From a bacterium (GTDB taxonomy: Bacteria > Patescibacteriota > Microgenomatia > Levybacterales > UBA12049), in NCBI GenBank assembly GCA_021813145.1, contig JAKALS010000004.1:72594-136593 (forward strand): 64,000 nt of DNA, in the 5' to 3' direction. Shown here one piece after another: positions 7,039 to 61,719 of this stretch (position 1 is the stretch's first letter; every line of letters begins with the position of its first letter). The notes beneath the pieces are model-generated. The model was not told the DNA's origin and made no database searches. It saw nothing but the letters and a program-made list of their open reading frames with translations. The translations under genes were made by a program, and so were the position numbers.

Positions 7039-7069
7039 AAACCGGCATAAAAATAATGTTATATGAGAT

Positions 7070-38305: not shown

Positions 38306-38376
38306 CTACGGGACTTGGATTCGAACCAAAATGAATGGATTCAAAATCCACGATCCTACCATTAGATGATCCTGCA
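38306..38376 (-). tRNA. tRNA-Gln (anticodon UUG)
   Basis: Hand-folded cloverleaf: acceptor TGCAGGA/TCCCGTA (one A-C mismatch), U8, D-stem ATCT/GGAT with AATGGTA loop, anticodon stem GTGGA/TCCAT with loop TTTTGAA, T-arm TTTGG-TTCGAAT-CCAAG, U1-A72 and discriminator G73 typical of tRNA-Gln; CCA not encoded. Confidence 0.7.
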
Positions 38377-39121: not shown

Positions 39122-39337
39122 TTGCATTCGGAGACTAATATAACTTTTGGAAATGTTGTGAGCGAAAACTCAGATTCTTATTCCCAAATGTTTTATTATT
39201 CGGTGCCCAAAAAGCCGGGAGGGGTCAAAGGAGCTTTGCTGGAGCTAGTTGAAGATTTCCGAACCGCAAACTGGTTAGAAATCGTCAAGTATCCAGAGTT
39301 AGTTTATCAACAAACTAACAAATATCTTTATTCTTAG
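39122..39337 (+). CDS. Small hypothetical protein (71 aa)
   Basis: ORF only; no SD recognised. Confidence 0.3.
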   Translation: MHSETNITFGNVVSENSDSYSQMFYYSVPKKPGGVKGALLELVEDFRTANWLEIVKYPELVYQQTNKYLYS

Positions 39338-39870
39338 GCTAACTTAAATGTCGATACCAAATCCCATTTGTGATTGTCTTTAGATGAGAATAAAGAAAAA
39401 GAATCAATTTTAATTTTATACTTAGGGTTATAATTTGATAGTTCTTGTTTACATTTTTCAAGTTCCGCCTTAGGAATGCTCTCTCCAATTGTAGCGTGAG
39501 GTATATAATTGTCTAATTCAAATTTGGGTTCTTCAACATCTTTAATAAAATCTTTTAATTTTAGAGCAATTAGTTTATGCAAATTTTTAATTTTATCAAT
39601 GTTTTTGATGGCAATAAAAATAACACCATTTGCTGAATTTTCAAAGTAACCCAAACCATTAGTTTCAATTTCAAAAGTATTAGTGCTTAATGCTATTTCA
39701 TTAAGAATTTCTGTAATCCTTTTTATAGAGACTAATAACATAAAAGGCATTTTCAGTGTAATATGAGGAACAATATCATAGATTGATTTGTTATATTTAT
39801 TTCTTAATACTGACAACTCGTTGGAAATAACATCTGGGAAAGTTAAAACTATTGCAAATTGCTCGTCCAT
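39334..39870 (-). CDS. 2H phosphoesterase (LigT-like 2'-5' RNA ligase/cyclic phosphodiesterase family)
   Basis: Two H-x-T/S-x motifs: 'VPHITLKMPF' and 'IPHATIGES'; 178 aa. Confidence 0.7.
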   Translation of the reverse strand: MDEQFAIVLTFPDVISNELSVLRNKYNKSIYDIVPHITLKMPFMLLVSIKRITEILNEIALSTNTFEIETNGLGYFENSANGVIFIAIKNIDKIKNLHKLIALKLKDFIKDVEEPKFELDNYIPHATIGESIPKAELEKCKQELSNYNPKYKIKIDSFSLFSSKDNHKWDLVSTFKLA

Positions 39871-39962: not shown

Positions 39963-40538
39963 ATGGACGTATATTACAAAAAGGAAATAACATATCCCTT
40001 CGCTGGGCAAAAATTTGTATTTGATATTGGAGAAACTTTATTTTCCACATTTGCAGTTGATCATGGTACTGACATACTTATTCGTGCCCTTGTTACTAGT
40101 AGTCCTAAGAGCATCCTTGATTTAGGTTGTGGTTATGGACCACTTGGAATAATCCTTGCAAAAAATAATCCAAAAGCTGAAGTCACGATGGTTGATCGTG
40201 ATTTACTTGCTGTTAGATATACCAAATTCAATATTGAAAAAAATAATGTCTCTAATGCAATCGCAATGGGAAGCCTTGGGGTGGAAGAAGTAAAAGACAA
40301 AAAATTTGATCTGATAGTGTCAAATATCCCAGCAAAAATTGGCGATGATGCAATTGCGCAAGAATTTATTCTGCAACCCTATGAACAACTCAATCCAGGT
40401 GGTGAATATTGGTTTGTAGTTGTAAGTGCATTAAACCGTCTAATTCCTAAATTAAACCCGAAGTACAAACTGAATATTGAGTATATTAGAAAAAGAAGTG
40501 GTCACACCGTATACAAAATCAGGAAGCCTGAAAATTAA
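39963..40538 (+). CDS. Class I SAM-dependent methyltransferase (MTS/RsmC-like small domain)
   Basis: 'ILDLGCGYGPLGIILA' motif I, 'FDLIVSNIP' motif IV-like. Confidence 0.7.
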   Translation: MDVYYKKEITYPFAGQKFVFDIGETLFSTFAVDHGTDILIRALVTSSPKSILDLGCGYGPLGIILAKNNPKAEVTMVDRDLLAVRYTKFNIEKNNVSNAIAMGSLGVEEVKDKKFDLIVSNIPAKIGDDAIAQEFILQPYEQLNPGGEYWFVVVSALNRLIPKLNPKYKLNIEYIRKRSGHTVYKIRKPEN

Positions 40539-41066: not shown

Positions 41067-42365
41067 CTAAGGTCGCAAGTTAAACTCTTCTTGTAGTTGA
41101 TTTATAGAAATTGTATTAGGTCTTTCGGGGTGAGGAGGTCCTAAGTCACTTCCTGTATCTACAAAATATATTTCTTTCCCGTCGAATAATAAGTTTGTCC
41201 AGAATTTTCCTACTGGTTGAAAACCTTGACTGTCAAGAATATTGGCAATATCTGTCAAACGTTGCATGAGATATGACCTTACACTACCTGGGGTAGAGTT
41301 GGAATTAATTATTGTGACTAATTCCTCATAACTTTTTGCATTGGCAATATACTCCTCAAATATATCCGCTCCTTTTATTCCATAAATTTTTGGAGTTATT
41401 ATGCCCAAACCTTGTAATAATTTAAGCCTATTCCACATTTGCCTCGCATGTAGTTCGCTATTTCCCATAGACACCACCGCTTTTTGGGCCACGTGTTGTA
41501 TCTTTACATTCCCTGATTCATCTTGAGTTACAACTGAATACGCAGTTAAGAATGTCTCAGCGCCTAATTGTGTAAACTCCATAATTCTTTTTAAGGCGAG
41601 CAGCATTTCTTCCTGTCTCAAAACGTTGACTTCTCTGAGCGTGGCTTCACTTACAGGCATTACCAAGTTTAAATTTCTAGATCTTAAAGCCTCAAGCCTT
41701 TTTTTTAGCCATTCGGTTTCTAGTTTTACATTATTAATTTTTTCTACTTTTGTATCCCCAGAACTTCCATGCACTAAGTTTTTCCTTACAGATAAAGCAA
41801 ATCTCCCCCTAATGCTGTCCGGAGATGCTTTCTCAGGATTAGTTGCGCCTATTTGCTGTCTCCATTCTGCTACTGCATTTCCATCAGGCGCATAAAGCAA
41901 GAAATATGTTATTGGGCCGCTAAGCATATGAGTTTTAAACAATTGCCATTCGTTTGTATCATCGGTTTTAATAGAAGAAAGCCTTTGCCTTACTTCTTCA
42001 GGATAGAATTCCTCAATGTCATCAGGCGAGGGAGATAGGCTAATTGTAAACACTACTTCCAGAGGGGATTTAATCATTCCAAGAAGTATTCTTTCGCCCA
42101 CCTCATCGCTATCAACGGATAATTTACTATCTTCGGTTCTTGGTTTGATTGCGCCTAATGTTACTTTCCCTTCTTCGATTAGTTGATTTAGCGCGGGATG
42201 GTCTAAAACGTCAATCATTTTATCGAGCTTATATCTTTCTAATTCTCCCAAGACGAGTCCTTCTGAATATCTAGTTTGAGAGTTTTCGGTAAAATAGGTT
42301 TCGGAAAGTACTTTTCTGCTTAACACTCGAGATTGTTCAATGGTAGCAAAACTTTCTCTAGTCAT
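41067..42365 (-). CDS. Nucleoside-diphosphate-kinase-domain protein with insertion, fused to an uncharacterised C-terminal domain
   Basis: N-terminal half aligns by eye to the NDK fold: 'KVTLGAIKP...', 'MLSGPITYFLLYAPDGNAVAEWRQQIGATNPEKASPDSIRGRFA', active-site-like 'NLVHGSSG'; about 210-aa C-terminal extension ending 'LLFDGKEIYFVDTGSDLGPP'. Confidence 0.55.
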   Translation of the reverse strand: MTRESFATIEQSRVLSRKVLSETYFTENSQTRYSEGLVLGELERYKLDKMIDVLDHPALNQLIEEGKVTLGAIKPRTEDSKLSVDSDEVGERILLGMIKSPLEVVFTISLSPSPDDIEEFYPEEVRQRLSSIKTDDTNEWQLFKTHMLSGPITYFLLYAPDGNAVAEWRQQIGATNPEKASPDSIRGRFALSVRKNLVHGSSGDTKVEKINNVKLETEWLKKRLEALRSRNLNLVMPVSEATLREVNVLRQEEMLLALKRIMEFTQLGAETFLTAYSVVTQDESGNVKIQHVAQKAVVSMGNSELHARQMWNRLKLLQGLGIITPKIYGIKGADIFEEYIANAKSYEELVTIINSNSTPGSVRSYLMQRLTDIANILDSQGFQPVGKFWTNLLFDGKEIYFVDTGSDLGPPHPERPNTISINQLQEEFNLRP

Positions 42366-42555
42366 ATTATTTTTTTATCCTTTCCAACAATCTCAAAAAG
42401 TCATCTATTTTTTTTATTTCCCTCTTGAGCTTTCCTATTTTTTTTGATTTAGTATCCATTTGGGCGCATTTTACTACTAGGAAGTTATGTTTGTCAAAAA
42501 ACTACGAGACTTGTAAATTATTCTATTTTGAGTATAATACTATCGGACAATTTAT

Positions 42556-44001
42556 ATGAGCCTAGAAAGAGAAGGGGGGAGGACGCTATTAATTAATCCT
42601 CCCTATACGGATTATTTTGATTCCGATCATTTTAAGCTTTCAAGACCTGATAGAAATTTATCTGGAGTTAATCTTCCTTTGGGAATAGGTTATATTGCTT
42701 CTTTCCTTCAAGAACGCGGAATTGAAGTTGACGGGCTAGATATGGAAGTGACTCAATCGTCACTTTCTGAAATAGCAGATAGAGTAAATAGAGAGGGAAT
42801 AAGATTTGTCGGTATTACTTCCGTAAGCAGTATTATAGATAAAGCTATCAGAATAGGAACTTATCTAAAAAAAAATACGGATGCCTATGTAGTCTTAGGT
42901 GGGGTTCATGCGACTGCAGAGCCTCAGGAAACAGCGTCTTTGGAAAGTTTTGATGCTGTAGCTGTCGGAGAAGGTGAGTTAACAATGCTTGATTTGGTGA
43001 CGGGATTACCTCCCGAGCAGGTAAGAGGGCTCTTATATAGAAAAAGTGGAGATGTAAAAATAAATCCGCCTCAACCAATTATTGAAGACTTAGATTCGCT
43101 GCCTCCTCCGGCGATAAACTTATTCCCTTTTGATCAATATAGGCCAAGCTTACATAGAGATTTGGATCCATCAATAGATCAGCCTTATTATACAGTAATT
43201 TCGTCTAGGGGATGTCCATACAGTTGTAGGTTTTGCTACTCCAAGGGAGTTTTTTCGTATAGAGTAAGAGATAGAAGTATAGGTAATGTAGTGGATGAAA
43301 TCGAGTCTTTCGCAAGAGAAAGAGGAAGAACTAAGGTAATGTTCTATGATGATACGTTTTCCTATGATAGGGCAAGAACTTTAGAGTTTTGCAATGAGGT
43401 AGGCCAAAGAAATCTAGATATTGTTTGGGGATGTAACACGAGGGTGGATAGAGTAACGCCGGAGATTTTAGCGGAAATGAGGAAAAGAGGATTAAAAAGA
43501 GTTTATGTTGGCGTAGAATCAGGCAATGATGCAATTTTAAAGCAGATGATGAAGGGGCTCACGAAAGATAAGGTTAGAAAGGGATTAGCAATTATGGCGG
43601 ATTCGGGTGTTGAAGTATCTGCTAGTTATATCATTGGAGTTCCGGGAGAAACAAGGAAGACTATTGAAGAAACGATAGCCTTTGCTATTGAAAATAATAC
43701 TGACTATGCTCATTTTTATACATTTACGCCTGACCCCGGATCTCCATATTACGTAGATTTGAAGTCGAGAGGAATCATAAAACCTTATGACTGGCTTAGC
43801 TACGGTCAAATGATTAGAAAAGGCACAGAGGCATTAGGCGAGAGAATTGATTGGGCAGAGCTACTCGAGTATACTAGAGAGGCGTATAGGAGATATTACT
43901 CTAGACCTGAATATCGTAGAATGAGAGAAAGGAAATTAAAAACTCCCTTGGAGCATTATCAAATGGAACTTTTAATAAATGAATATTCTGGAAATTTATA
44001 A
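42556..44001 (+). CDS. B12-binding radical SAM (class B) enzyme
   Basis: N-terminal cobalamin-binding Rossmann domain ('VNLPLGIGYIASFL'), CxxxCxxC 'CPYSCRFC', 481 aa. Confidence 0.85.
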   Translation: MSLEREGGRTLLINPPYTDYFDSDHFKLSRPDRNLSGVNLPLGIGYIASFLQERGIEVDGLDMEVTQSSLSEIADRVNREGIRFVGITSVSSIIDKAIRIGTYLKKNTDAYVVLGGVHATAEPQETASLESFDAVAVGEGELTMLDLVTGLPPEQVRGLLYRKSGDVKINPPQPIIEDLDSLPPPAINLFPFDQYRPSLHRDLDPSIDQPYYTVISSRGCPYSCRFCYSKGVFSYRVRDRSIGNVVDEIESFARERGRTKVMFYDDTFSYDRARTLEFCNEVGQRNLDIVWGCNTRVDRVTPEILAEMRKRGLKRVYVGVESGNDAILKQMMKGLTKDKVRKGLAIMADSGVEVSASYIIGVPGETRKTIEETIAFAIENNTDYAHFYTFTPDPGSPYYVDLKSRGIIKPYDWLSYGQMIRKGTEALGERIDWAELLEYTREAYRRYYSRPEYRRMRERKLKTPLEHYQMELLINEYSGNL

Positions 44002-44008
44002 TTAGAGT

Positions 44009-44452
44009 ATGGCTGAGCGAGAACCCGTAGAAAAACAGATTACTGTATTTGTAGGGTGCGTAGTGAAAAATGGATACGTATTGTTGGTTCAAAGAGCCGA
44101 GGAGGAATGTCCTGAAGCTCACATGAAATGGGAATTGCCTGGAGGTAAAGTGGATTTCAACGAGACACCGCAGGAATCGGTAGAGAGAGAATTTTTTGAG
44201 GAGACAGGGGTTAGGATAAAAGCTAGGAGTTTACTTCCCCGCGTTCAAGTTAGCTATTGGCAATATCCCTGGGGTAGGCAGCAGACGCTCGTTTTTTGTT
44301 TTACGTGTGATTTTGTTAATAGTAGTCCTTTCTTAGGTGATCATCACGTAGAGAAAATAGCATGGACACCAGTCAATGAAGTTAATAGATTACAAACAAT
44401 TCCGGGAACTAAGGAGTTTATTGAATTATCCCTACAACATTTAAGTTTATAA
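44009..44452 (+). CDS. NUDIX hydrolase
   Basis: Nudix box 'GGKVDFNETPQESVEREFFEETGV'. Confidence 0.85.
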   Translation: MAEREPVEKQITVFVGCVVKNGYVLLVQRAEEECPEAHMKWELPGGKVDFNETPQESVEREFFEETGVRIKARSLLPRVQVSYWQYPWGRQQTLVFCFTCDFVNSSPFLGDHHVEKIAWTPVNEVNRLQTIPGTKEFIELSLQHLSL

Positions 44453-45031
44453 TTTTTCTCTGTGCGTATAGTTGCCTTCTAACATTGTCGTAAATAATAT
44501 TTTGTCTAGTTTTGGAGTTAGGGAAGTAAGTCCATCATTTTCAATGACTGCATCTGCTAATTCTAAGCACCTTTCTGCCTGAACCCTGCTTCCATCTGTC
44601 TCCTCAAGGTTAATTAAATTTGTAAACTCTTGCCAAGTCGTCGGATCTCCTGGTCTTCCTCTTTCTTTTAACATCCTGAATCTAATCTCCGGAGGCATGC
44701 TTAATCCTAATATAAACGCACCCAACTCAGTTTTTAAAAATCTAACTTCTCCTGGGCTCCTAACACTATCTATTACCACTTTTTGAGTTCCTGAAGACTC
44801 AATCCAAATTTTTGCTCTTCTAGCCAAAATATCATCACCAAATTTTTCCCTGAGCGCACTACTTATTCCAAAAAGTGTTTTTCTATTATCGTCTAGCGCC
44901 AGGATGGTCGCAACGTCTCTCAAAGTTTGCGATAATGAATAATAGACAAAGCCTCTTCTTTGTAGATCTGAAGCGATAGTACTTTTGCCAGAAGCCGGGC
45001 TCCCGACAAGGCCGATAGCAAGAGTTTTCAT
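44447..45031 (-). CDS. P-loop nucleotide/nucleoside kinase-like protein
   Basis: 'IGLVGSPASGKSTIASDL' Walker A; start placed at ATG 45031 (MKTLAIGL), whose upstream has an extended -10. Confidence 0.55.
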   Translation of the reverse strand: MKTLAIGLVGSPASGKSTIASDLQRRGFVYYSLSQTLRDVATILALDDNRKTLFGISSALREKFGDDILARRAKIWIESSGTQKVVIDSVRSPGEVRFLKTELGAFILGLSMPPEIRFRMLKERGRPGDPTTWQEFTNLINLEETDGSRVQAERCLELADAVIENDGLTSLTPKLDKILFTTMLEGNYTHREKL

Positions 45032-45040
45032 TTGTACGAG

Positions 45041-45049
45041 ATTATAGCA
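45041..45049 (-). promoter_or_regulatory. Extended -10 box (TGCTATAAT) 9 nt upstream of the kinase ATG; probable leaderless transcript
   Basis: Minus-strand TGCTATAAT-CTCGTACAA-ATG. Confidence 0.4.
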
Positions 45050-46069: not shown

Positions 46070-46771
46070 TTAGGTTTTTCTGCTGTAGTATCTTTCTAGT
46101 AATGCTAAGGATAAGATCTCAACAGAATTATAGACTGGAAGCGAATATTCAATTGGAAATACTAAAGGTAATTCTGTGCAAGCAAGCACTATAGCCTCCG
46201 CGCCCTCTGACTTTAATATATCAGCTATTCTTTTTAGGTTATTCATATCTTCACCGGTTGAGGACTCAGAAATAACATTTCTTATTGCCTGTTCTATTAT
46301 TGGAAACTCTTTTTCATCAGGTACTATTACATTTACTTCTTTTTTCTCAAGAGCCTTTTGATAAATAGATGAATTAAGAGTTGATGGGGTGCCTAGTAAC
46401 CCAACTTTCTTAATATTATCTTTTTCAATTTGAGTTACAACCTCATCAACGATAGAAACGAATGGAAAATTAGATATAGATTGTAAATCCTGAAGCATTA
46501 TGTGAGCAGTATTGCAAGCAATTGCGCCACATAGAACATTCAGCTTATTCAGTTCTAAAACTTTTTGTTTCAATATCTCAAGCGCTTCTTTTTCTTTCGT
46601 AGAAGAAGATATGAAATCAGGAACAGGAACAGAATACAAGACAATTTGCGGAAAGTCCTCATTATTTACCGCATGGAATTGTTTGACTGCATTATTAATC
46701 AGCGCCGAGTATAAATACGCAGACGCTTCTGGTCCCATTCCTCCTATAATTGCTATTGGTTTATTTTTCAT
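46070..46771 (-). CDS. Aspartate/glutamate racemase family protein
   Basis: 'KPIAIIGGMGPEAS', 'LCGAIACNTAH', 'IVLACTELP'; start placed at ATG 46771 (the ORF-track extension upstream is probably non-coding). Confidence 0.8.
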   Translation of the reverse strand: MKNKPIAIIGGMGPEASAYLYSALINNAVKQFHAVNNEDFPQIVLYSVPVPDFISSSTKEKEALEILKQKVLELNKLNVLCGAIACNTAHIMLQDLQSISNFPFVSIVDEVVTQIEKDNIKKVGLLGTPSTLNSSIYQKALEKKEVNVIVPDEKEFPIIEQAIRNVISESSTGEDMNNLKRIADILKSEGAEAIVLACTELPLVFPIEYSLPVYNSVEILSLALLERYYSRKT

Positions 46772-46780
46772 ATTAGTCAA

Positions 46781-46831
46781 CAAAAAACCCTTGCAAATTC
46801 TCAAGATGAAATTCTCAAAAACTTGCAAGGG
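46781..46831 (-). terminator. Hairpin (CCCTTGCAA...TTGCAAGGG) followed by a U-run just upstream of the racemase ATG; terminator of the upstream gene or attenuator
   Basis: Minus-strand CCCTTGCAAG-N26-TTGCAAGGG-TTTTTTG. Confidence 0.4.
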
Positions 46832-47014
46832 TCCTGCAAAAGGACTGTGCCACCTTGCTTTGGTCTTATTCATGACGCGCTCCGTTACCGACACACGTTG
46901 CTGACTTTTACGGTTTCGCCTCCGTGACTGATTAAGTCCTGCTCCCCGATCCCAACCATATCGGATCAACGCATTTACTTTCTAAGCGTAGGATACCACA
47001 AAACAGAAATTACG

Positions 47015-47506
47015 TCAAGCAGCTTGGGATGATTCAGGCACAGTCCATTCCTTTAGATCAGTCTCAAATTCTCTTACCAGATTAACTCCTTTTTTGACTG
47101 CATTTGTGCTGTTTGGTAAAGAACTTTCTCCCTGTCCAGTGTATTCAATTAATGCATCTGGGTATCCATGCGTAATTATAGTTGTATCCACATGTACCTT
47201 TCGACCATCTCCCATTAACTCCAACTGTTGCCCTTCCCATATTGGCATAAAATTAATTTCATATAAATGACCGTTGCCGGCGATTATTGGAAAGCTGCTC
47301 CTATTTCCTAAAACAAGCAAGCTTCCATATGTGTCGCTTTGAAGAAATCCGGGAGTTCTAATTAAAGCAGCAATTACAGTATCGATTATGCGACAAGCAT
47401 TATCTAATCTTTCTGATTGAATTAGTTGTCTATTTTCTGTCCCTAGCCATGCATCAAATGCTATAGCGCTTATTTGCTGCTGTACTGCTTCTCTATTTAA
47501 ACTCAT
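47015..47506 (-). CDS. Hypothetical protein (163 aa)
   Basis: Translationally coupled downstream of trpS (4-nt gap); no recognised motif. Confidence 0.5.
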   Translation of the reverse strand: MSLNREAVQQQISAIAFDAWLGTENRQLIQSERLDNACRIIDTVIAALIRTPGFLQSDTYGSLLVLGNRSSFPIIAGNGHLYEINFMPIWEGQQLELMGDGRKVHVDTTIITHGYPDALIEYTGQGESSLPNSTNAVKKGVNLVREFETDLKEWTVPESSQAA

Positions 47507-47510
47507 ACGC

Positions 47511-48680
47511 CTATTTTACCTTAAGAGGTGATCGGATTGGAGTATCAAATATAAATTCCGGTGTTCTTGCTTTTGCCTCTGGCAATTTACCTTGATGATC
47601 AGCGAGATACACCAAGACTTCATCGACTGCTTGAGCCTTACATTCTCCGCACAAAATCTCACCACTACTACATTGCTCAGCAAGCCTGCTATTATCAAAG
47701 TGGTATGTTCTTAATTGATATATAGGACAGATTTCGGGAACTCCTCCATGCTCCCTTTGGAAACTGCCCAAAACACTGCCCCCTGTGTAAGCTGACATAA
47801 TTTTCTTTTTTGCAGTTTTGGGATCATCTGTTAAGAATACCGCGCCTTCTGGTCTGGATGCGGACATTTTTCCTTTTCCATCCAAACCTGCTCCAAATTT
47901 TGTGAATGTTGCTGCAGGCGGAGTAAATCCCTTTTTGCGGGCTGCATCCCTTGCCAATAATATGTACGGATACTGATCAACTCCTACCGGAATTACCGTT
48001 GGTTTTGGCCCCCCAAGTTCTTCATATTGAGGTAAGAGAATTTGTGCTAGTTGAACTGCTCCTCGATAGAAAACCGTACCAGAGTTTTCACCTTCCTCAT
48101 CTTTACCGAATCCAAAAACTCCGAAAATTTTATTTAGGCTTGTGTGTTTTGCGATATCCATAGCGGCATTGTAAAGGTCCGGATAGTCAGAATCTACGAA
48201 TATGTGTGTTTTATCTGGAGAAAAACCCATAGCTATAATGCTTGGAATTACAGATTCGTAAGCAGTTCTTCTAGCCTCACCTAGACTACTAGCTTTACCA
48301 ACAAGATAACTCTCGTCGTTTGTTATGGGAATATATACATCCGCTCCTTGTCTTTGCATCCATAATAATTCGTCGAAGACTTGTTTGTGCCCAAAATGTA
48401 ATGGGCCTGAAGGGTTAAGCCCTGAAACCACAGCCCATGGCTCTCCATTGGCCATTGCGCCAACTACGCTTTCTAAATCTCTATGAGCGAAGGTAACTCC
48501 TAATTCCATTAGTCGACTTGGATCAGGATGATATAACCTAAATCTATCAATAGGTTTTAAATCTAGCTCAGCCATTTTTTGAGGATAATAAGCTAACTCC
48601 TCATCTCGCTTTGCTAATTTAGCTTGATGATCTTGTCTTGAAATTTCTTCTAGTTGTGTTTGTCGTTCAGGTCCTAGCAT
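47511..48680 (-). CDS. trpS: Tryptophan--tRNA ligase, archaeal/eukaryotic type
   Basis: HIGH-type 'GPLHFGH', 'GVDQYPYILLARD', KMSAS variant 'KMSASRPEG'. Confidence 0.75.
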   Translation of the reverse strand: MLGPERQTQLEEISRQDHQAKLAKRDEELAYYPQKMAELDLKPIDRFRLYHPDPSRLMELGVTFAHRDLESVVGAMANGEPWAVVSGLNPSGPLHFGHKQVFDELLWMQRQGADVYIPITNDESYLVGKASSLGEARRTAYESVIPSIIAMGFSPDKTHIFVDSDYPDLYNAAMDIAKHTSLNKIFGVFGFGKDEEGENSGTVFYRGAVQLAQILLPQYEELGGPKPTVIPVGVDQYPYILLARDAARKKGFTPPAATFTKFGAGLDGKGKMSASRPEGAVFLTDDPKTAKKKIMSAYTGGSVLGSFQREHGGVPEICPIYQLRTYHFDNSRLAEQCSSGEILCGECKAQAVDEVLVYLADHQGKLPEAKARTPEFIFDTPIRSPLKVK

Positions 48681-48681
48681 A

Positions 48682-49461
48682 TTATTTAACGGGATATGAA
48701 TTAACTAATGTTCTTAAAAACATTACGGTTTCGTCTATCGCCCTTGGATTGACATTAGTAATGTCATCATCTTTAGTTTGCATTCTGTGCCAAGCTCCTT
48801 CGTGGTAACGCGCTATTACTGCTGCTGCTAAACCCTCTTCTAGAAAGGCTAGATTGTCAGCATTTGGACTATGGTCCCTAAGCTCAACAGGTACTCCTAC
48901 TTTCTTCCCGTGCTCAATGAGAAGCTTATTTAGTTCAGCTGTGTTATCAAGTCTTCTTCCAGTTGTTTGGAAAACCGACATATTTCCTTTTCCAACTGCT
49001 TGAATTGTAATCGCCCCATCGTAAGTATCGATAAATTCCGTTTCATCTGTTATTAAATGTTGTACAAATAGTTTTGACCCTGGAACAAAATCAGGATTTC
49101 TTCGTTGTCTAGTAGCTAAATCCGGATCTAATCCAGCATCAAAATACACCAACCTGATATTAACCGGCAATTTTGCCTTCTGTAAGTGTTCGCTCAACTT
49201 TAATAGCGTGACTACGCTGCTTCCATTGTTGTTGGCGCTTGGTAATGTACCAAAAGTATCGTAATTCGCAGTTACCCAAAGATCATGCGGTTTGTCGTAA
49301 TCAAAAGCAACTACAAGATGTCTGTCAACCCCGCGGGGAGATGTAATTTCGTAAACACGAGGAATTATGCCAAGCTTTCTAGTCTCTTCATCCAAATAAT
49401 TTGCCCGGCCTTCGGTGCCTTGCCCCATTAAACTTTTTAAACTCTTATAGGTTTCTATCAT
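48682..49461 (-). CDS. Hypothetical protein with weak M28-peptidase-like core but substituted metal ligands
   Basis: 'WVTANYDTFGTLPSANNNGSSVVTLLKLSEHL' parallels the M28 'AHYDS...GA.DNASG' block with His->Asn and Asp->Asn. Confidence 0.35.
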   Translation of the reverse strand: MIETYKSLKSLMGQGTEGRANYLDEETRKLGIIPRVYEITSPRGVDRHLVVAFDYDKPHDLWVTANYDTFGTLPSANNNGSSVVTLLKLSEHLQKAKLPVNIRLVYFDAGLDPDLATRQRRNPDFVPGSKLFVQHLITDETEFIDTYDGAITIQAVGKGNMSVFQTTGRRLDNTAELNKLLIEHGKKVGVPVELRDHSPNADNLAFLEEGLAAAVIARYHEGAWHRMQTKDDDITNVNPRAIDETVMFLRTLVNSYPVK

Positions 49462-49463
49462 AT

Positions 49464-50474
49464 TTAAAATCTTGACAGTACGTAAGTTTCCACATCTCTT
49501 CCAACTCTTTCTTTTAAGACATTTGGCGAAATTTGTCCATCATAAAACTCATCAGCTAGTGTTATTGGAGAATCAACGCCTTCCAATCTTCTTTTTGCCA
49601 TTTCGCAAATAATTCCGATATCTAAGGTTGGATTGGGAACCGCGGGGTTAGTAGAAATGAATGAAGCACTTATTAATTCTCTAACATAATCAGGGTCTGA
49701 TCTTTCGATTACTATTCTATTTCTTTGCAAACGTTTGCTTCCTGTTTTATATGCAGTAATCCCATGATCTTCAATGCCCTCATTGGCAAAGAAATATGAC
49801 CAATTCATTCCTAGCGGAAAAGTTGGGGTTAGAAAAAGAGACATTAAGCCTTTTTGCCCACTTCTTTCAGCAACTCTTCTGGCGACATCGTCATACAGAT
49901 CTTCTCTTGGTGGCCCAACTTTTATGTCAAGCCCCAAGATTGTGGCGATTTCGTCAAAAGAATACATGAATCCTTTTACTCTTTCAATTTCTACTTTCGA
50001 TTCAGGAACTGTTTTCTCTACTGCCGCCATAAGTTCTGGATCTGCATTGCAGGTTTGCATAACCCTGTCTCTTTCGGCAACAAATTCTGGTGAATCTATA
50101 TATTCACTCATTCTTACAACTCTCAGTCCCGTATTGTATACGTCATTAACTTTACTTACGAATTTTGCTCTTTGATCGCCAAGAAGCATATAATAATCCT
50201 GATGTTCCTGTCCAACATTTCTACAAGCTGCGGTGTCTGCAACTAAAATTGAAGGATCAACGTTAGAACCCTCCTGTTTTAAGGCTTCTGCAAGATACGA
50301 AACGAACAAGTAATATTTAAGACTATCGATCGGATGACCTTTATCATCATATGTCTCTCCGTAGAAAAGTCTCATAGGCTCAGGAGCAATGCTGCCCGCT
50401 CTACTCCTTATGTCTTCTGCTGAAGGAGCTTGCGAAACTAAACCACGTGTCGATAGTAATCTTTCAATATTCAT
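49464..50474 (-). CDS. Class I aminoacyl-tRNA-synthetase-like paralog (TrpRS/TyrRS-like Rossmann core, degenerate motifs)
   Basis: 336 aa; 'KTGSKRL' in the KMSKS position, 'ILVADTAA' block; adjacent to trpS. Confidence 0.35.
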   Translation of the reverse strand: MNIERLLSTRGLVSQAPSAEDIRSRAGSIAPEPMRLFYGETYDDKGHPIDSLKYYLFVSYLAEALKQEGSNVDPSILVADTAACRNVGQEHQDYYMLLGDQRAKFVSKVNDVYNTGLRVVRMSEYIDSPEFVAERDRVMQTCNADPELMAAVEKTVPESKVEIERVKGFMYSFDEIATILGLDIKVGPPREDLYDDVARRVAERSGQKGLMSLFLTPTFPLGMNWSYFFANEGIEDHGITAYKTGSKRLQRNRIVIERSDPDYVRELISASFISTNPAVPNPTLDIGIICEMAKRRLEGVDSPITLADEFYDGQISPNVLKERVGRDVETYVLSRF

Positions 50475-50569
50475 ATCCTTTACTATAGGGACGTAATTAT
50501 ACTCCCAACTCTAGTTAATTTCAACCCATCTAGATTGAAAATAAAGATATTAAGCAGTATAATTCTGCC

Positions 50570-51613
50570 ATGGTTAATGAACAATATAGGCCAGAAGTCA
50601 TAAATGCCGAACAAAGACTAGGAATTCACTTTGTCAAACCCGATAGCTATTTGGCTGACAGATTAAATTCTCAAATTGCAATAATTGCTGAAACTTTGAA
50701 TGTTCCCGCTAGTATGCCCGTTATACCAGCAAGGGGATTTATTGATAGGCCTTTATTAACCGGGCAGAGACGTGAGATAGATCAACTTATAGAGCTAGAA
50801 TATGCTAATGATGCTGTAGACTTGCAAGATGGATTAACGGCAATTCCTGTAAGAGAAAATGGCGAACGAATGGTACATTTACCTACGCTATTTGAAAGAG
50901 ACAGAATTCCTCTAAGTTTATCATCGCTTCCGTTTCATGAGGCTTGTGGAGAATGGGCGGGAAAAGAAAGGGTATTCTGGGCAAGACAGCAAGTTGCAGA
51001 ACATTTATTAAGAGCAGGAATAGCATTAGATAAGTTAGATATCGTTTTGCATATTGAAGATGCTTTTCGTCCCGTTGGGGTTCAAGAAGGACTTTTTCTT
51101 AGAAGAGCGAAAATGATACTTCAGGAACATCCTGAATGGATAGTTAACTGGGATAAAGTTTGGGCAGAAGCAAGAAGCAAAACAGCCATAACTCCCTTAA
51201 TGGCAGGTCATAAGTCAGGCGCTGCGTTAGACATAACGTTACGAAAGAAATCTAATGGGGAACCTCTATCTATAGGGAACAAATATCCCGAAGGTGGAGC
51301 TAAGGTTGCATTACGTTATCCATATGTTACTCAAGAAGAATGGGCTGCGCGTCAGTTATTCGTCCGCACCATGGAAATGGCAGGTTTACGAAGATATCCA
51401 TATGAAACTTGGCATATCTCATACGGTGACTTGTCTGCGGGTATTTCAGCTGATTCTGATACGGAAATAACGTCGGGTTACGAAGCAATGTACGGTCCTA
51501 TTGAGGGCTTCAACTCTAATGGTGAAGTAATTCCTTACTCTACAGATACGTACAATCAACCATTCTATTCGCAGTTAGAATTACTGGATATAATAAAGAG
51601 GGAAGGTAGATAG
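50570..51613 (+). CDS. M15-family D-Ala-D-Ala dipeptidase-like (VanX-like) zinc peptidase
   Basis: 'HKSGAALDI' (SxHxxGxAxD-type) and 'ETWHISYGD' (ExxH) metal motifs in the C-terminal half. Confidence 0.6.
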   Translation: MVNEQYRPEVINAEQRLGIHFVKPDSYLADRLNSQIAIIAETLNVPASMPVIPARGFIDRPLLTGQRREIDQLIELEYANDAVDLQDGLTAIPVRENGERMVHLPTLFERDRIPLSLSSLPFHEACGEWAGKERVFWARQQVAEHLLRAGIALDKLDIVLHIEDAFRPVGVQEGLFLRRAKMILQEHPEWIVNWDKVWAEARSKTAITPLMAGHKSGAALDITLRKKSNGEPLSIGNKYPEGGAKVALRYPYVTQEEWAARQLFVRTMEMAGLRRYPYETWHISYGDLSAGISADSDTEITSGYEAMYGPIEGFNSNGEVIPYSTDTYNQPFYSQLELLDIIKREGR

Positions 51614-51617
51614 CTTC

Positions 51618-52775
51618 TTATTTTACTTCAAAAACAACAGTATCTTTTGTAATACGGTCCATTTTTTCTAGATCAACATCCCACCCTCTACCAGGTGTAG
51701 TTGGCACTTTAATATATGCTCCATCAGGTTCTCTTTCCATTGGAGCAACACATGGATCGTCACCTTCTTTAAAATATGCGGAAGTGCCTGAGATATCAGA
51801 TGGTAACGTAACTCCTGGATGCGCAGCCATCGCTAAAGAATGAGCCTTCCCAGGAGAAGTTAGCTCAACCATTCCGCCAACCCATGTGTCAACTCCTCTT
51901 TCTTGACAGTAATCAATCATTTTTCGAGCAATGTCTAATCCTCCAACTCTAGTCACCTTAATGTTAATTATGGGGATTCCTCCTTCTACTGCTTGTTCCA
52001 AATCGCTCATTGTATGAATACTCTCATCTAAGCAAATTCTTCCTGGAACACTATTTACATTAAATTCTTGTTGTAATTGTGTATGAGCAACGATATCGTT
52101 ATATGCCAATGGCTGTTCCATCATTAGCAAATCAAGATTTCCATATCCAATAAGTAATCTTTTGTGCTCTGGATTATGTAAATCAAAAGATGAGTTAGCG
52201 TCAATCATGAGTAGTACATCTGGATATGCTGTTCGAATACGTGCAATCTTATCCAAATCTCCTTGACTTGGCCCAACTTTTATTTTTATACGACGGTATT
52301 TATCTTTTGAAATTCTTTCTGCAATTTGTTCTAACGAATCGTTTTTTGAAATGCTTACTCCTACCTCGACTTGAGGCTTTTCTCCTCCCAATAATGTGAA
52401 CAAAGGAACATCCTTATCGATTGCTTCAGCATCCAAGTATAGATTAGCGAATGCCGCTTGGAAAATTGGATGATCCATAAGAAATCCTAGAGATCGAACA
52501 GCTTCGCGTGGATCATCGAAATCTTTGCCTACAAATTTACTTCCAATTTCATTTAGTAATGCCCATGCCTCTATGGTTGATTCAGACCCATAAACAGGGA
52601 ATTTAGTAGTATCTATTGAACTCCAAGCTTCAACTCCATTTGAAGTTTGCCCACGCAGAGCAATCATATCTCTTTTGGGACCAATATCTCGAGGTAAACC
52701 ATCAACGTCACCAAGAGAAAAGACATGTCTCATCTCCGGCGTGATGTATCGTGCTTCTAAACGTTCGAATTTCAT
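51618..52775 (-). CDS. Enolase-superfamily MR/MLE enzyme (dipeptide epimerase / o-succinylbenzoate synthase-like)
   Basis: 'IKIKVG', 'LMIDANSSF', 'MMEQPL', 'LDESI' metal/base motifs. Confidence 0.8.
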   Translation of the reverse strand: MKFERLEARYITPEMRHVFSLGDVDGLPRDIGPKRDMIALRGQTSNGVEAWSSIDTTKFPVYGSESTIEAWALLNEIGSKFVGKDFDDPREAVRSLGFLMDHPIFQAAFANLYLDAEAIDKDVPLFTLLGGEKPQVEVGVSISKNDSLEQIAERISKDKYRRIKIKVGPSQGDLDKIARIRTAYPDVLLMIDANSSFDLHNPEHKRLLIGYGNLDLLMMEQPLAYNDIVAHTQLQQEFNVNSVPGRICLDESIHTMSDLEQAVEGGIPIINIKVTRVGGLDIARKMIDYCQERGVDTWVGGMVELTSPGKAHSLAMAAHPGVTLPSDISGTSAYFKEGDDPCVAPMEREPDGAYIKVPTTPGRGWDVDLEKMDRITKDTVVFEVK

Positions 52776-57645: not shown

Positions 57646-58962
57646 ATGCAAAACTTAAACATTGTCTATTCGGACATTTCCCAGCTTAAACCCGCTACAT
57701 ATAATCCGAGGGCTTGGAATGATGAGGCAATAAAGCAACTTACGGAAAGTATTAAACGTTTCGGATTAGTAGACCCTATTATCGTAAACGGTTCTAAAGA
57801 AAGATTTAATATTGTAATTGGTGGACATTTTAGACTTAAGGTTGCCAAGGATCTAGGATATGCTGAAATCCCCTGTGTCTATGTAAATATCCCTGACATT
57901 GAGAAAGAAAAGGAATTAAATCTTCGATTAAACCGTAATGTCGGTGAATGGGACTGGGATTTACTTTCCGAATTTGGAGAAAACTTGCTTTCAGACGTTG
58001 GCTTCTCTAGTGAAGAACTGGATGATATTTTTCAAATTGAAGAAACACCCGAGCAATTTGACCTTTGGAAAGAACTACAAAAATTAAATATCACTAAAAT
58101 TGCGACTCAAAAGGGGGACGTATATAAGCTAGGTGAAAATAGATTAATGTGTGGAGATAGCACCATAGAAAGTGATGTGCTGAAACTAATGAACGGTGAA
58201 CAAGCGGATATGTGCTTCACGGATCCTCCGTATCTTTTAGATTATCTCCACGGAAAGAAAAAGAAGGGTAAAGTAACCGAGGGTTTTGGAGCAAAAAGAG
58301 ATAGAAAATATCTTGAAACAGACGTACTTCCTCCTGATTTTACAGAAAAGTGGATGACAAACATCGCCAAAATCCAAAAGCTAGATTTCTCAATCATAAT
58401 TTTTGAAAATCCCAAGAACTTAAGGACAATTTGGTGTGAACTTGAGAAACATTGGAGATACAGAAATACAATTGTTTGGCATCTTCCAAATAGAATGCAA
58501 GGATTTGCCGCAAAATATAAGTTCTTCAATAAACATGACATTGCTCTAGTTGGGACAAGTGGCGATATTGGTTTAAACCTTGCTAGCGAAGACGAACTGT
58601 TTCAGAATGAATATGAAAATGCTCTATACGCAACTTCCGGAAAACCACACTGGGAAGGATATGAAAAAGGAAAGAAAATCCAACCAAGTGATTTTATTGA
58701 ATTTGTTGCTTCAGACGAAAAACACTCAGGACAAGGAATAATTTTCGGCACCAAACCTATCGAGGTTCTTATTCCTTATCTTAAGGTTTTAACAAAACGC
58801 GGAGATTTGGTAATTGAACCATTTGGTGGTAGCGGTAGTACGCTTATCGCCAGCGAAAAACTTAGAAGACGCTGCTTCATTATGGAGAAATCACCTGTCT
58901 ATGCGGAAGTAATCATAAAACGCTGGGAAAAGTTAACTGGACAAAAAGCAATAAAAATGTGA
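57646..58962 (+). CDS. ParB-like nuclease domain fused to N6-adenine/N4-cytosine DNA methyltransferase (phage-type orphan MTase)
   Basis: ParB N-terminus 'VDPIIVNGSKERFNIVIGGHFRLKVAK'; 'DPPY' (MCFTDPPY) and 'FGGSGST' MTase motifs. Confidence 0.8.
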   Translation: MQNLNIVYSDISQLKPATYNPRAWNDEAIKQLTESIKRFGLVDPIIVNGSKERFNIVIGGHFRLKVAKDLGYAEIPCVYVNIPDIEKEKELNLRLNRNVGEWDWDLLSEFGENLLSDVGFSSEELDDIFQIEETPEQFDLWKELQKLNITKIATQKGDVYKLGENRLMCGDSTIESDVLKLMNGEQADMCFTDPPYLLDYLHGKKKKGKVTEGFGAKRDRKYLETDVLPPDFTEKWMTNIAKIQKLDFSIIIFENPKNLRTIWCELEKHWRYRNTIVWHLPNRMQGFAAKYKFFNKHDIALVGTSGDIGLNLASEDELFQNEYENALYATSGKPHWEGYEKGKKIQPSDFIEFVASDEKHSGQGIIFGTKPIEVLIPYLKVLTKRGDLVIEPFGGSGSTLIASEKLRRRCFIMEKSPVYAEVIIKRWEKLTGQKAIKM

Positions 58963-59369
58963 AAACAGATAAAAACAAACAAATATTAATTGATCAACTA
59001 AGAAAAACGCCGATTATTCAAATCGCTTGCGAAAAATCAGGAATTGGACGAGCAACATATTATCGTTGGAAAAAAGACGATGCAAAATTTTGCGAAAACG
59101 CAGACGAAGCTTTGCAAGAAGGAAGCTTGTTGGTTAATGATATTGCGGAATCTCAGTTAATGAGTGCAATTAAGGATAAAAATATAACTGCAATAATCTT
59201 TTGGCTTAAACACCATCACCCAAATTACGCGACCAAAGTAGAAGTTACTGCAAGACTTAAGGCAGACAATGAAACTTTAAGCCCAGAGCAAGAAGCTTTA
59301 GTAACTAAGGCTTTACAAATTGCGGCTCTAATTCCAAAAGTAAAGGAGGAAGAAAAGCATGATACCTAA
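58959..59369 (+). CDS. Phage terminase small subunit-like HTH protein
   Basis: 136 aa, 'IACEKSGIGRATYYRWKKDD' HTH; immediately upstream of and overlapping the large terminase. Confidence 0.45.
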   Translation: MKTDKNKQILIDQLRKTPIIQIACEKSGIGRATYYRWKKDDAKFCENADEALQEGSLLVNDIAESQLMSAIKDKNITAIIFWLKHHHPNYATKVEVTARLKADNETLSPEQEALVTKALQIAALIPKVKEEEKHDT

Positions 59370-60867
59370 TTTAACTGAAAATGAATTACTCGAGATAAAA
59401 AATAAAAGAGTTGTCAGAAGAAACCTTGCAAAAAATAGTCATTTTTGGTTTTTCTCCATTTATCTTAGTCACTATATTAAATTCCCCTTTGCCGCTTTTC
59501 ATCATGAAATGTTTCGTATTACCGAAGATTTACTTCTTCGTTTTGTTGTGCTAGTTGCTTTTAGAGGCTCTGGCAAATCAACCATTATGACTTTGTCTTA
59601 CGTAATTTGGTCAATAGTCGGATTACAAAAGAGAAAATTTGTTCTCATCTTAAGCCAGACACAAAATCAAGCCAAAACACACATGGCAAATATCAAAAGA
59701 GAGTTGGAATCTAATGAATTGTTAAAAGCGGACATCGGGCCATTTGAAGAGATAAGCGATGAATGGGGTTCAAATTCAATTGTTCTTTCAAACTTTGGCG
59801 CAAGGATTACTATTGCCTCAACAGAACAAAGTATTAGAGGGTTAAGACATGGTGAACACAGACCGGATTTAGTTATTTGTGACGATGTAGAAGACTTAAA
59901 TAGCGTTAAAACTAGAGAAGGACGGGATAAAACATTTCAGTGGTTAACAGGAGAAGTTTTACCAATCGGAGACCAGAATACCAAGATTTTAATTATTGGT
60001 AATCTTTTACACGAAGACAGCCTTTTAATGAGACTCAGGCAGGCAATTGAAAATGAAAGAATTAATGGAAGATTTTACTCTTATCCTTTACTCGATGACG
60101 ACGATCAAATTTCTTGGCCCGGGAAATATAAAACATTAAAAGATATCGAAGATTTAAAAAAGTCTATTGCTTCAGATTCGGCTTTCTCAAGAGAATATCT
60201 ATTAAAAATTATTTCTGAGGATGATAGGCTGGTTAGGCCGGAGTGGGTTCAGTATTACGATGTTCTTCCTAACCAAGAAGGAAATAACTTTCGAGAAACA
60301 GCAACTGGAATTGATTTAGCAATCTCTGAAAAAGAGTCAGCGGACTGTACAGCAATGGTTTCAGCAAAAGTTTTTGGTTACGGAGACGATTTAAAAGTGT
60401 ACATACTTCCAGATCCTATAAACGCAAGAATGGATTTCCCCACAACCTTAGAATCGGCCATAACTCTATCAAAAGGGTTAGGAACTTATTATCCGACAAA
60501 ACTATACATAGAAGAAGTTGGTTATCAGTCCTCTTTAATACAAAGCTTAGTCAGTAAAAACATTCCGGCCGAGGGAGTAAAGGTAGCAGGTCAAGATAAA
60601 AGGGCAAGACTGGCATTGGTTACGCACATGATTCAACAAGGTAAGGTTTTATTTCCAAGAACCGGTGCTGAACAATTAATTGAACAGCTAACAGGTTTTG
60701 GAATTGAAAAACACGATGATTTAGCAGATGCCTTTGCAATACTTATGTTAAAAATTCTTGAAATGGAAAGCCAAGCGGAACCAAGAATCACTATTTTAGA
60801 AGTTGGAAGTATGTTTGGAGATTCTCCGTTTGATTACAAACCTATCACTATAGATACAATTTTCTAG
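59359..60867 (+). CDS. Phage terminase large subunit
   Basis: Walker A 'AFRGSGKST', Walker B 'LVICDDVED', C-terminal RNaseH-like nuclease acidic residues 'GIDLAIS...ADCTAMV'. Confidence 0.8.
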   Translation: MIPNLTENELLEIKNKRVVRRNLAKNSHFWFFSIYLSHYIKFPFAAFHHEMFRITEDLLLRFVVLVAFRGSGKSTIMTLSYVIWSIVGLQKRKFVLILSQTQNQAKTHMANIKRELESNELLKADIGPFEEISDEWGSNSIVLSNFGARITIASTEQSIRGLRHGEHRPDLVICDDVEDLNSVKTREGRDKTFQWLTGEVLPIGDQNTKILIIGNLLHEDSLLMRLRQAIENERINGRFYSYPLLDDDDQISWPGKYKTLKDIEDLKKSIASDSAFSREYLLKIISEDDRLVRPEWVQYYDVLPNQEGNNFRETATGIDLAISEKESADCTAMVSAKVFGYGDDLKVYILPDPINARMDFPTTLESAITLSKGLGTYYPTKLYIEEVGYQSSLIQSLVSKNIPAEGVKVAGQDKRARLALVTHMIQQGKVLFPRTGAEQLIEQLTGFGIEKHDDLADAFAILMLKILEMESQAEPRITILEVGSMFGDSPFDYKPITIDTIF

Positions 60868-61073: not shown

Positions 61074-61184
61074 AGTAATAAAGTAATGAATCTAAGAATA
61101 AAAATGTATAGCGTCAGACGCTTTATTTAGCCTTGACTTTATGCTTAAATATAAGTAATATGTCATCAATAGGCACGAAAGGAG

Positions 61185-61697: not shown

Positions 61698-61719
61698 GTA
61701 ATAGAATTATTCTATTAAG

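Follow-up and report, generated by a model that had tools for sequence, protein, structure and literature searches.

A nucleoside diphosphate kinase fused to a RIO-like domain and a radical SAM-NUDIX gene pair at one locus of a Patescibacteria genome

The oxetanocin enzyme OxsB acts on a 2'-deoxyadenosine phosphate and its partner OxsA is an HD-domain phosphohydrolase. OxsB is a B12-dependent radical S-adenosylmethionine (SAM) enzyme which performs an oxidative ring contraction in the biosynthesis of oxetanocin A, and it carries extra N-terminal and helix-bundle domains (PMC12931638). For HpnJ, the radical SAM enzyme of the hopanoid cyclitol ether, a contraction of the ring of glucosamine on a hopanoid has been hypothesised (PMC13459092). 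Other described relatives of the proteins studied here are the Ndk/NME nucleoside diphosphate kinases (NDKs, PF00334), the RIO (Rio1/Rio2) and Bud32/PRPK kinases, the MutT-type NUDIX hydrolases, which are diphosphatases of 8-oxo-dGTP and pyrimidine (deoxy)nucleoside triphosphates ((d)NTPs), and the AdkA-like/UPF0200 kinases. Relatives of all these groups are encoded side by side at positions 41067 to 45049 of a stretch of 64,000 nucleotides (nt), called the window below, which covers positions 72,594 to 136,593 of contig JAKALS010000004.1 (assembly GCA_021813145.1) from a bacterium of the Patescibacteriota lineage UBA12049. The four genes code for a fusion protein of 432 amino acids (aa) with an NDK domain, a B12-domain radical SAM enzyme, a NUDIX hydrolase and a P-loop kinase.

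A first-pass annotation of this DNA read the four genes as a possible single pathway for modified nucleotides. Comparison with relatives does not show them as one conserved unit, as relatives of the NDK fusion are never found beside a radical SAM gene and orthologues of the radical SAM enzyme are never found beside an NDK or P-loop kinase homologue. Conservation of gene order holds for the radical SAM-NUDIX pair and fails for the NDK fusion and the P-loop kinase, two of the four genes, which are unlinked elsewhere. We favour, with a probability of about one half, a reading in which three transcription units lie in a nucleotide-pool neighbourhood, no dedicated four-gene pathway exists and the radical SAM enzyme acts on a nucleotide-linked sugar. 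In the first unit, the 432-aa protein would serve as the NDK of Patescibacteria by a ping-pong transfer between nucleoside tri- and diphosphates (NTP and NDP) through phospho-His199, and its RIO/Bud32-like domain would feed or regulate the NDK. In the second, the radical SAM enzyme would act by radical chemistry on the sugar part of a substrate linked to a nucleotide, either a nucleotide or an NDP-sugar, and the NUDIX hydrolase would cleave the pyrophosphate of its substrate or product. The third would be a convergent protein of AdkA/UPF0200 type and nucleoside monophosphate (NMP) kinase fold with no conserved partner. The analysis shows which domains and folds are present, which residues are conserved and which genes are linked; every substrate and all of the chemistry suggested here are inferred.

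The radical SAM-NUDIX gene pair

The radical SAM gene (42556-44001, plus strand, 481 aa) encodes a B12-binding domain (PF02310, 64.1 bits against a cut-off of 32.1, residues 38-147) and a Radical_SAM domain (PF04055, 95.8 bits, residues 214-377). The cysteines C220, C224 and C227 of its CX3CX2C motif, CPYSCRFC, are invariant, in agreement with the class-B architecture described in the first-pass annotation. The best curated family is HpnJ (TIGR03471), with 188.2 bits against a cut-off of 577.6, followed by BchE (TIGR02026), the anaerobic Mg-protoporphyrin cyclase, with 156.8 bits against 481, and below these two comes a long tail of B12-domain radical SAM families. The protein aligns with HpnJ and BchE over nearly the full length and has the same B12-binding and radical SAM build and a similar size. 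In contrast to them, it has no hopanoid or bacteriochlorophyll genes nearby and its partner is a NUDIX hydrolase; hpnI, hpnK and squalene-hopene cyclase were all absent among the open reading frames (ORFs) of the window that were examined. Since the HpnJ and BchE scores fall far under the cut-offs, the protein is a neighbour of these families and not a member. A grouping with the housekeeping enzymes of hopanoid or bacteriochlorophyll synthesis, raised earlier as a point to check, is therefore found in the best matches and not in membership. Judged by sequence, the protein appears to be a function-unassigned relative in the HpnJ/BchE neighbourhood, whose enzymes are known or proposed to catalyse rearrangements or cyclisations and not methylations.

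A profile of ten orthologues was compared with solved proteins and retrieved AprD4 (E 3e-34), 9CCB (2e-24) and OxsB (4e-15). The entry 9CCB is QCMT, the methyl-coenzyme-M-reductase glutamine methylase. The likeness to OxsB, on which the pathway idea had drawn, stands as detectable homology, but OxsB is only the third-closest solved relative. Both systems join a B12-domain radical SAM enzyme with a phosphohydrolase; the solved OxsB chain has 744 aa against 481 aa here, and the partner in the window is a NUDIX protein, an HD-domain partner of OxsA type being absent. As AprD4 and OxsB, with HpnJ as a proposed third case, act on sugar rings by rearrangement, dehydration or contraction, and in view of the gene neighbours, the substrate of the radical SAM enzyme of the window is probably nucleotide-linked, with its sugar as the site of action.

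The NUDIX gene (44009-44452, plus strand, 147 aa) follows after a gap of 7 nt, one less than the 8 nt given at first. Its identity as a NUDIX hydrolase is confirmed by Pfam (PF00293, 74 bits against a cut-off of 21.1) and by a perfect Nudix box, GX5EX7REUXEEXGU, from G46 to V68 (GKVDFNETPQESVEREFFEETGV). It matches MutT, NudG-like and 'MutT related' proteins best. The perfect box is common to this protein and the MutT-type enzymes, but the protein does not reach the MutT equivalog cut-off (TIGR00586, 50.6 bits against 97.9) and its gene is translationally coupled to that of the radical SAM enzyme. It belongs to a MutT-like, Patescibacteria-centred subfamily of 34 proteins with 41-95% identity.

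Close orthologues of the radical SAM enzyme are rare. Among 5.8 billion proteins only about ten were found, with 42-60% identity, and beyond them extends a broad family whose identity does not exceed about 35%. The two groups were split by bit score, orthologues lying above 350 and paralogues at or below 270. Searches with a NUDIX hidden Markov model found a NUDIX gene at most 210 nt from the radical SAM gene in four of the six informative orthologue loci, and any NUDIX gene in just one of the 155 paralogue loci (1.18 Mb of flanks). The four NUDIX-bearing loci, from Patescibacteria and Nanoarchaeota, are the window, L010, L017 and the L015 group (L015/16/18/98/99), and both gene order and NUDIX type vary between them. 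The radical SAM gene precedes the NUDIX gene in the window and in the L015 group of Nanoarchaeota, and follows it in L017 of Nanoarchaeia. In L010 the order is PfkB, radical SAM, NUDIX with overlapping genes, the gene of the PfkB sugar/nucleoside kinase running over the start of the radical SAM gene. At the remaining loci the radical SAM gene is followed by an ATP-cone nuclease-like gene (L011/12), stands with a convergent gene for a CARF-winged helix-turn-helix (wHTH) protein (L013/14) or, in L097, where the arrangement is truncated at the contig end, is preceded by an APH-like kinase gene. A further NUDIX-bearing locus, which would be the fifth, is hinted at by P0021 and P0304, whose contigs have the same length of 2334. 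The kinase gene of L097 (153-1196) encodes an APH/choline-kinase-like phosphotransferase with a lipoprotein-like N-terminus, directly upstream of a radical SAM orthologue of 48% identity; its best families are GntI and thiamine kinase, well under the cut-off. The radical SAM-NUDIX pair is a two-gene operon which recurs in Patescibacteria and Nanoarchaeota, and by these counts the pairing noticed in the first-pass annotation is a conserved linkage.

Chance has to be considered as a source of such a juxtaposition, as compact genomes put unrelated genes near each other, gene order around each of the four genes varies widely among relatives and promoter-like sites are not more numerous than in shuffled controls. 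That the four are unrelated housekeeping genes brought together without meaning is nevertheless very improbable to us, because the NUDIX adjacency contrasts so strongly between orthologues and paralogues and is found in two gene orders and two domains of life, the 7-nt spacing and the overlapping genes of L010 indicate co-translation, and NUDIX genes recur beside NDK-fusion genes as well. The NUDIX gene is the element common to two independent linkages, with the NDK fusion in its relatives and with the radical SAM gene in its orthologues.

Paralogous HpnJ-like radical SAM genes (30-34% identical) of Patescibacteria and Nanoarchaeia were seen in L028 (4092-8386), L053 (5042-8370) and L035/L043/L031 (about 6001-7400). 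In the five paralogue loci inspected from the candidate phyla radiation (CPR) and DPANN, glycosyltransferases of the GT1, GT2 and PMT_2 types and LPG_synthase_TM proteins flank the radical SAM gene, and these glycosyltransferase-linked paralogues score best on HpnJ or BchE. We take this cassette to resemble the hopanoid hpnI-hpnJ-hpnL genes, and its hosts are not known to us to make hopanoids. Among the orthologues, the L017 pair is situated between STT3, GT4 and Alg9-like genes of an N-glycosylation cluster. Such neighbourhoods favour a different substrate, the radical SAM enzyme being an HpnJ-like remodeller of the sugar head group on an envelope lipid or glycan, the NUDIX protein a housekeeping hydrolase of MutT type or of NDP-sugars, and nucleotides not the substrate. 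It would also agree with HpnJ as the best or near-best family of orthologues and paralogues alike, and with the wide occurrence of the NUDIX subfamily without a radical SAM gene. We regard this as rather unlikely, since no glycosyltransferase lies next to the radical SAM gene in the window, L010, L011, L013 or L015, the NUDIX adjacency is specific to the orthologues and absent from the glycosyltransferase-linked paralogues, and the HpnJ score is far under its cut-off.

Genes of other kinds surround several orthologues. CARF-wHTH regulators (Csa3-like, Pfam HFX_2341_N) are convergent to archaeal radical SAM orthologues in L013 (2317-3069) and L015 (8708-9466), and a remnant is present in L017 (5753-5935). 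About 200 nt past the CARF gene of L013, and about 940 nt from the radical SAM orthologue, lies a second radical SAM gene (3265-4659, 464 aa, Radical_SAM and Fer4_12) with a partial PADLOC match to prokaryotic viperin (pVip; 52.5 bits, model positions 2-155 of 257). In L011 the gene of an ATP-cone-Mrr/PD-(D/E)xK protein overlaps the 3' end of the radical SAM gene; the L015 group possesses MazG-like pyrophosphatase and MazE/PIN genes near it, and L010 a GajA/AriA/mad3-like ATPase along with DUF4145. These signals, each of them weak, hint at an antiviral or signalling module which makes or destroys a modified nucleotide, viperin-like, in variable, island-like regions of CPR and DPANN genomes. 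The patchy distribution across domains of life fits with this, as do the PADLOC matches of the P-loop kinase to dCTPase, of the NUDIX protein to PDC-S07 and of the radical SAM enzyme to PDC-M51A. We give such a module little credence. The PADLOC matches are weak or belong to the generic superfamily, the 72 bits of the NUDIX protein being about its Pfam NUDIX score; the pVip models do not match the window radical SAM enzyme, for which PDC-M51A (43.5 bits) is the only hit; the neighbours in the window are housekeeping genes (aminoacyl-tRNA synthetase, methyltransferase) with no anomaly in composition; and viral contigs hold distant relatives only. A phage origin of the radical SAM gene was rejected, the relatives on viral contigs being only 32% identical.

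A bolder proposal, speculative and in our opinion improbable, makes the radical SAM-NUDIX pair the B12-domain counterpart of OxsB or viperin in CPR and DPANN. It would convert a common (d)NTP or NDP-sugar to a ring-modified antiviral, toxic or signalling nucleotide, the NUDIX hydrolase would detoxify or mature the product, and in the archaeal versions CARF or ATP-cone sensors would read it out; independently, the RIO-like domain of the NDK fusion would represent a new class of nucleotide-directed phosphotransferase in tandem with NDK.

Several points weigh against the reading we prefer, in which the radical SAM enzyme acts on a nucleotide-linked sugar beside its NUDIX partner. The linkage counts rest on about 6-7 distinct loci, some of shared ancestry, and L011/12 and L013/14 have no NUDIX gene. 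At least three NUDIX proteins, P0293, P0298 and P0311, are nearer to that of the window than the partners in L010 and L017 are, and they occur in unrelated contexts without a radical SAM gene. In a neighbour-joining tree the linked NUDIX genes are scattered among unlinked ones. A dedicated, co-evolving NUDIX partner is excluded by the scattered tree and the closer unlinked relatives, and the protein is therefore better seen as a general NUDIX enzyme to which a rare radical SAM attaches. With the paralogue cassettes and the N-glycosylation cluster of L017, a sugar linked to a lipid or glycan agrees no less well than a nucleotide. Cobalamin binding by the B12-like domain is putative. AprD4, to which the enzyme is closest among solved proteins, works without cobalamin. 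It is placed among 'unrelated enzymes', outside the group of radical SAM enzymes that depend on B12 (PMC12931638). No characterised orthologue exists for the radical SAM enzyme, nor for the RIO-like domain described below.

The NDK fusion protein and its RIO-like domain

The fusion gene (41067-42365, minus strand) has 18 homologues, all from Patescibacteria-type sources. Pfam NDK matches residues 91-208 of the protein with 59.1 bits against a cut-off of 27. An AlphaFold model on 16 homologues (pLDDT 82) predicted a disordered segment (residues 1-40), two helices (41-64), an NDK fold at about residues 66-205 (41751-42170, minus strand), a long helix (206-234) and then a separate C-terminal domain. 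In a Foldseek search with the NDK domain the top 50 matches were NDKs only, with about 150 columns aligned to NDKs of 140-155 aa and a target TM score of 0.65-0.83. As this alignment to canonical NDKs is of full length, the fold is complete. An insertion of about 60 aa, which the first-pass annotation had placed in this domain, is ruled out by the end-to-end match; the extra length comes from an N-terminal extension of about 65 aa and two insertions of less than 10 aa. The NDK assignment of the N-terminal half itself is well supported. H199 of the motif 'NLVHGSS', singled out at first for its histidine, is aligned to the catalytic histidine of the solved NDKs 3vvu and 3vvt ('NVIHGSDS'). Along with H199, the residues K74, Y121, R169, T175, R186, N196, S201 and E216 are invariant (16-18 homologues), and we take these nine to be the canonical active-site positions of NDK. 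From its sequence the domain is predicted to be complete and active.

In common with Ndk/NME, the fusion protein has the complete fold and every residue of the canonical active site, among them the histidine of N-x-x-H-G-S that accepts the phosphate. It differs in the N-terminal extension, the C-terminal kinase-like domain, the strong divergence of sequence and the confinement to Patescibacteria-type sources. The NCBIfam equivalog NF001908 was not reached (50.2 bits against 155), and the Ndk equivalog cut-offs in general lie at 155-255 against about 50 bits for the fusion protein. Two proteins of 426-427 aa from Levybacteria-type sources, P0015 and P0017, share the N-terminal extension and the NDK domain of the fusion protein; the last 200 aa or so of both are unrelated and do not align to the RIO-like domain.

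The relatives of the NDK fusion are situated among genes of nucleotide metabolism. L007 has the order ThyA, DHFR, fusion, SHMT. L002 possesses dCTP deaminase, Tmk, ThyA and NUDIX-DHFR genes upstream and three NUDIX genes downstream, with dNK and SHMT further on. In L005 a divergent NUDIX gene is followed by GTP cyclohydrolase I, adenylate kinase and a second NUDIX gene, and in L001 Ppx-GppA lies upstream and NUDIX and UbiE-type methyltransferase genes lie downstream. NUDIX genes, at most 1-2 genes away in L001, L002 and L005, are the commonest neighbours, and the fetched loci contain no radical SAM gene beside an NDK-fusion relative. As the relatives sit in salvage neighbourhoods and never by a radical SAM gene, the fusion looks like the NDK of its lineage, at work inside nucleotide-salvage neighbourhoods. 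The nucleotide-centred character first ascribed to the locus is in keeping with these relatives. Homologues of ThyA, DHFR, SHMT, Tmk and dCTP deaminase were absent from the 64-kb window. The adjacency of NDK-fusion relatives to ThyA, DHFR and SHMT also led us to consider the radical SAM enzyme as a stand-in for thymidylate synthase, which was dropped as nothing else supports it.

The C-terminal half had been left as an unassigned region of about 210 aa. About 190 aa of it (residues 240-425 approximately, 41091-41648, minus strand) can be assigned to a RIO/Bud32-like, protein-kinase-like fold on the basis of a domain model, Foldseek and profile alignment. Modelled alone with 46 relatives, the domain reached a pLDDT of 93, and its best Foldseek matches were Rio1 of A. 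fulgidus (1zth, 1ztf), human RIOK2 and PRPK/Bud32 (E 1.2e-5 to 4e-5 and query TM 0.47-0.57 for Rio1 and RIOK2). In sequence the similarity is weak. The family profile matched Rio1 with E 0.016, and Bud32 was aligned through the catalytic and metal loops. Pfam RIO1 (PF01163) did not match the window domain itself, and it gave weak matches in eight of the 46 relatives, none at threshold (best E 4e-4, about 19 bits against a cut-off of 22).

Residue conservation among 155 sequences was 95% for E270, 84% for K295, 88% for R313, about 97% for D/N/E391, 100% for D403 and 99% for D407. Positioned by the Bud32 alignment, the ATP-binding β3 lysine, the metal-binding Asn/Asp, the DFG-type aspartate and a further aspartate are kept, with D/N391 at the catalytic-loop asparagine and D403 at the DFG aspartate. 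The position of the HxD aspartate holds a non-conserved glycine or variable residue, and across the 155 sequences no aspartate is conserved there. The RIO and Bud32/PRPK proteins are thus the closest folds, a minimal kinase core without activation loop, with weak sequence similarity across αC-β4-β5-hinge and the catalytic and metal loops, and with the β3 lysine, catalytic-loop Asn/Asp and DFG-type aspartate likewise conserved. The RIO-like family differs from them in its sub-threshold or absent match to Pfam RIO1, the unconserved HxD aspartate, an arginine in place of glutamate at a conserved αC position and an extra invariant aspartate in 'DxGxDLG'. The partners also differ, being ribosome or KEOPS components for RIO and Bud32 and nucleotide kinases for the RIO-like family.

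An exhaustive phmmer search found 223 family representatives at E<=1e-3, counted as cluster representatives at 50% identity. Most members are stand-alone proteins of 200-260 aa, and those looked up are annotated "hypothetical" and come from Patescibacteria and one Omnitrophota genome. P0157, P0161, P0252, P0262 and P0156 are fusions of NDK followed by the domain, one protein among such fusions having 994 aa; P0185 has the reversed order, and in P0187 the domain is fused to adenylate kinase. In L177/L178 a 240-aa NDK gene is followed 20 nt on by a stand-alone member. NDK was fused or adjacent in every fetched locus with a RIO-like domain. Fusion in both orders together with a split version is classical evidence for a functional partnership, and the RIO-like domain is a functional partner of nucleotide kinases.

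With the ATP/Mg site kept and the usual base absent, an ATPase or a kinase with a phosphate acceptor fits the domain better than a hydroxyl-directed protein kinase. We infer an ATP-binding, ATP-hydrolysing or phosphate-acceptor-type phosphotransfer module which may feed or regulate the NDK, and we do not think that it is a protein Ser/Thr kinase. The fold represents an undescribed family without a Pfam model. Literature searches on an NDK-RIO fusion and on a CPR radical SAM-NUDIX system found nothing relevant. As the literature is silent and neither module has a Pfam or NCBIfam family, the NDK/RIO-like architecture and the radical SAM-NUDIX pair, both drawn from known superfamilies, appear undescribed.

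The P-loop kinase and the surroundings of the locus

The AdkA/UPF0200-like P-loop kinase gene (44447-45031, minus strand, 194 aa from M46) encodes a Walker A motif, GSPASGKS, and matches Pfam AAA_18/AAA_17. The first-pass annotation had it as a kinase-like gene converging on the radical SAM-NUDIX pair, which is correct; it ends at 44447, and its stop codon and that of the convergent NUDIX gene overlap by 6 nt. The start is most likely M46 (45031), and not 45049 or 45166, because solved homologues align from M46 and a TTGTAA-17-TATAAT site lies just upstream. The protein scored 69.4 bits on PRK08356 (UPF0200/AdkA-like) against a cut-off of 189, and it matched S. solfataricus SSO1041/AdkA-like structures with E 4e-13. 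The Walker A motif and the NMP-kinase fold are common to it and the AdkA-like/UPF0200 kinases, on which a literature search found nothing relevant. The PADLOC dCTPase model matched with 57.5 bits at positions 154-329 of 630, which we take to be the kinase-like part of the anti-phage dCTP deaminase. In contrast to those deaminases, the window protein has no deaminase domain. No homologue of the P-loop kinase was found in the other fetched loci.

With all four genes described, the single pathway for a modified nucleoside or nucleotide can be weighed, in which the kinases would supply or activate the substrate, the radical SAM enzyme would modify it and the NUDIX hydrolase would trim phosphates in the manner of OxsB/OxsA. 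It is plausible for each of the four products to handle nucleotides, the genes adjoin one another and have a common divergent promoter region, OxsB is detectably related, and non-homologous kinases adjoin radical SAM orthologues elsewhere (PfkB in L010, APH-like in L097). We still hold such a pathway to be highly doubtful, given that the NDK fusion never adjoins a radical SAM gene in relatives and looks like the general NDK of its lineage, that none of the radical SAM orthologues has a P-loop kinase homologue at its side, and that OxsB is distant, with extra domains, and an OxsA-type HD partner is absent.

In the three-unit reading which we prefer, the layout of the locus is as the ORF list and the first-pass annotation both give it, with the NDK fusion divergent from the radical SAM-NUDIX pair and the P-loop gene convergent. 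The divergent spacer of 190 nt (42366-42555) carries back-to-back promoter-like sites, TTGACA-18-TAAAAT on the minus strand (42497 to 42468, 11/12) and TTGTAA-16-TATAAT on the plus strand (42511-42538, 10/12). These two and the site upstream of the P-loop kinase are matches to the consensus only, and in total such sites do not exceed the shuffled controls. No riboswitch, for cobalamin or otherwise, was found upstream of the radical SAM gene at the Rfam gathering score, the sole Rfam match in the window being a tRNA. Composition is flat, with no discontinuity of GC content or skew at the locus, and a signal of horizontal transfer was rejected for this reason.

Further genes of the window were also recorded. 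The tRNA gene lies at 38306-38376. Near the NDK fusion and just upstream, a LigT-like 2H phosphoesterase gene (39334-39870, minus strand) is divergent from a gene for an MTS/RsmC-type methyltransferase (39963-40538). On the other side, 46070-52775 holds a group of genes of D-amino-acid or peptidoglycan-peptide type, with TrpRS in between, comprising an Asp/Glu racemase (46070-46969), an M28 peptidase (48682-49461), an M15 D-Ala-D-Ala dipeptidase-like protein (50570-51613), an MR_MLE protein of the enolase superfamily (51618-52775) and two ORFs without a Pfam match (47015-47506 and 49464-50474). Phage or mobile-element genes at 57646-63087, namely a fusion of ParB_N with an N6/N4 DNA methylase (57646-58962), a terminase large subunit (59359-60867) and a large serine recombinase (61801-63087), suggest that an element has integrated at the window's right end.

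Meaning for nucleotide salvage in Patescibacteria

To our knowledge, Patescibacteria and DPANN archaea lack de novo nucleotide synthesis and live by salvage, and the management of nucleotide pools therefore bears on their symbiotic lifestyle. A function for the RIO-like family, with its at least 223 clusters, would give an annotation to a "hypothetical protein" that is conserved throughout the radiation, and the RIO-like/NDK module could reveal a new wiring of phosphotransfer to NDK. The radical SAM-NUDIX pair, a small system of two genes that is open to testing, comes from the branch of B12-domain radical SAM enzymes that is understood least, the HpnJ/BchE-like, non-methylating one. If the radical SAM enzyme does act on nucleotides, OxsB would be its only precedent.

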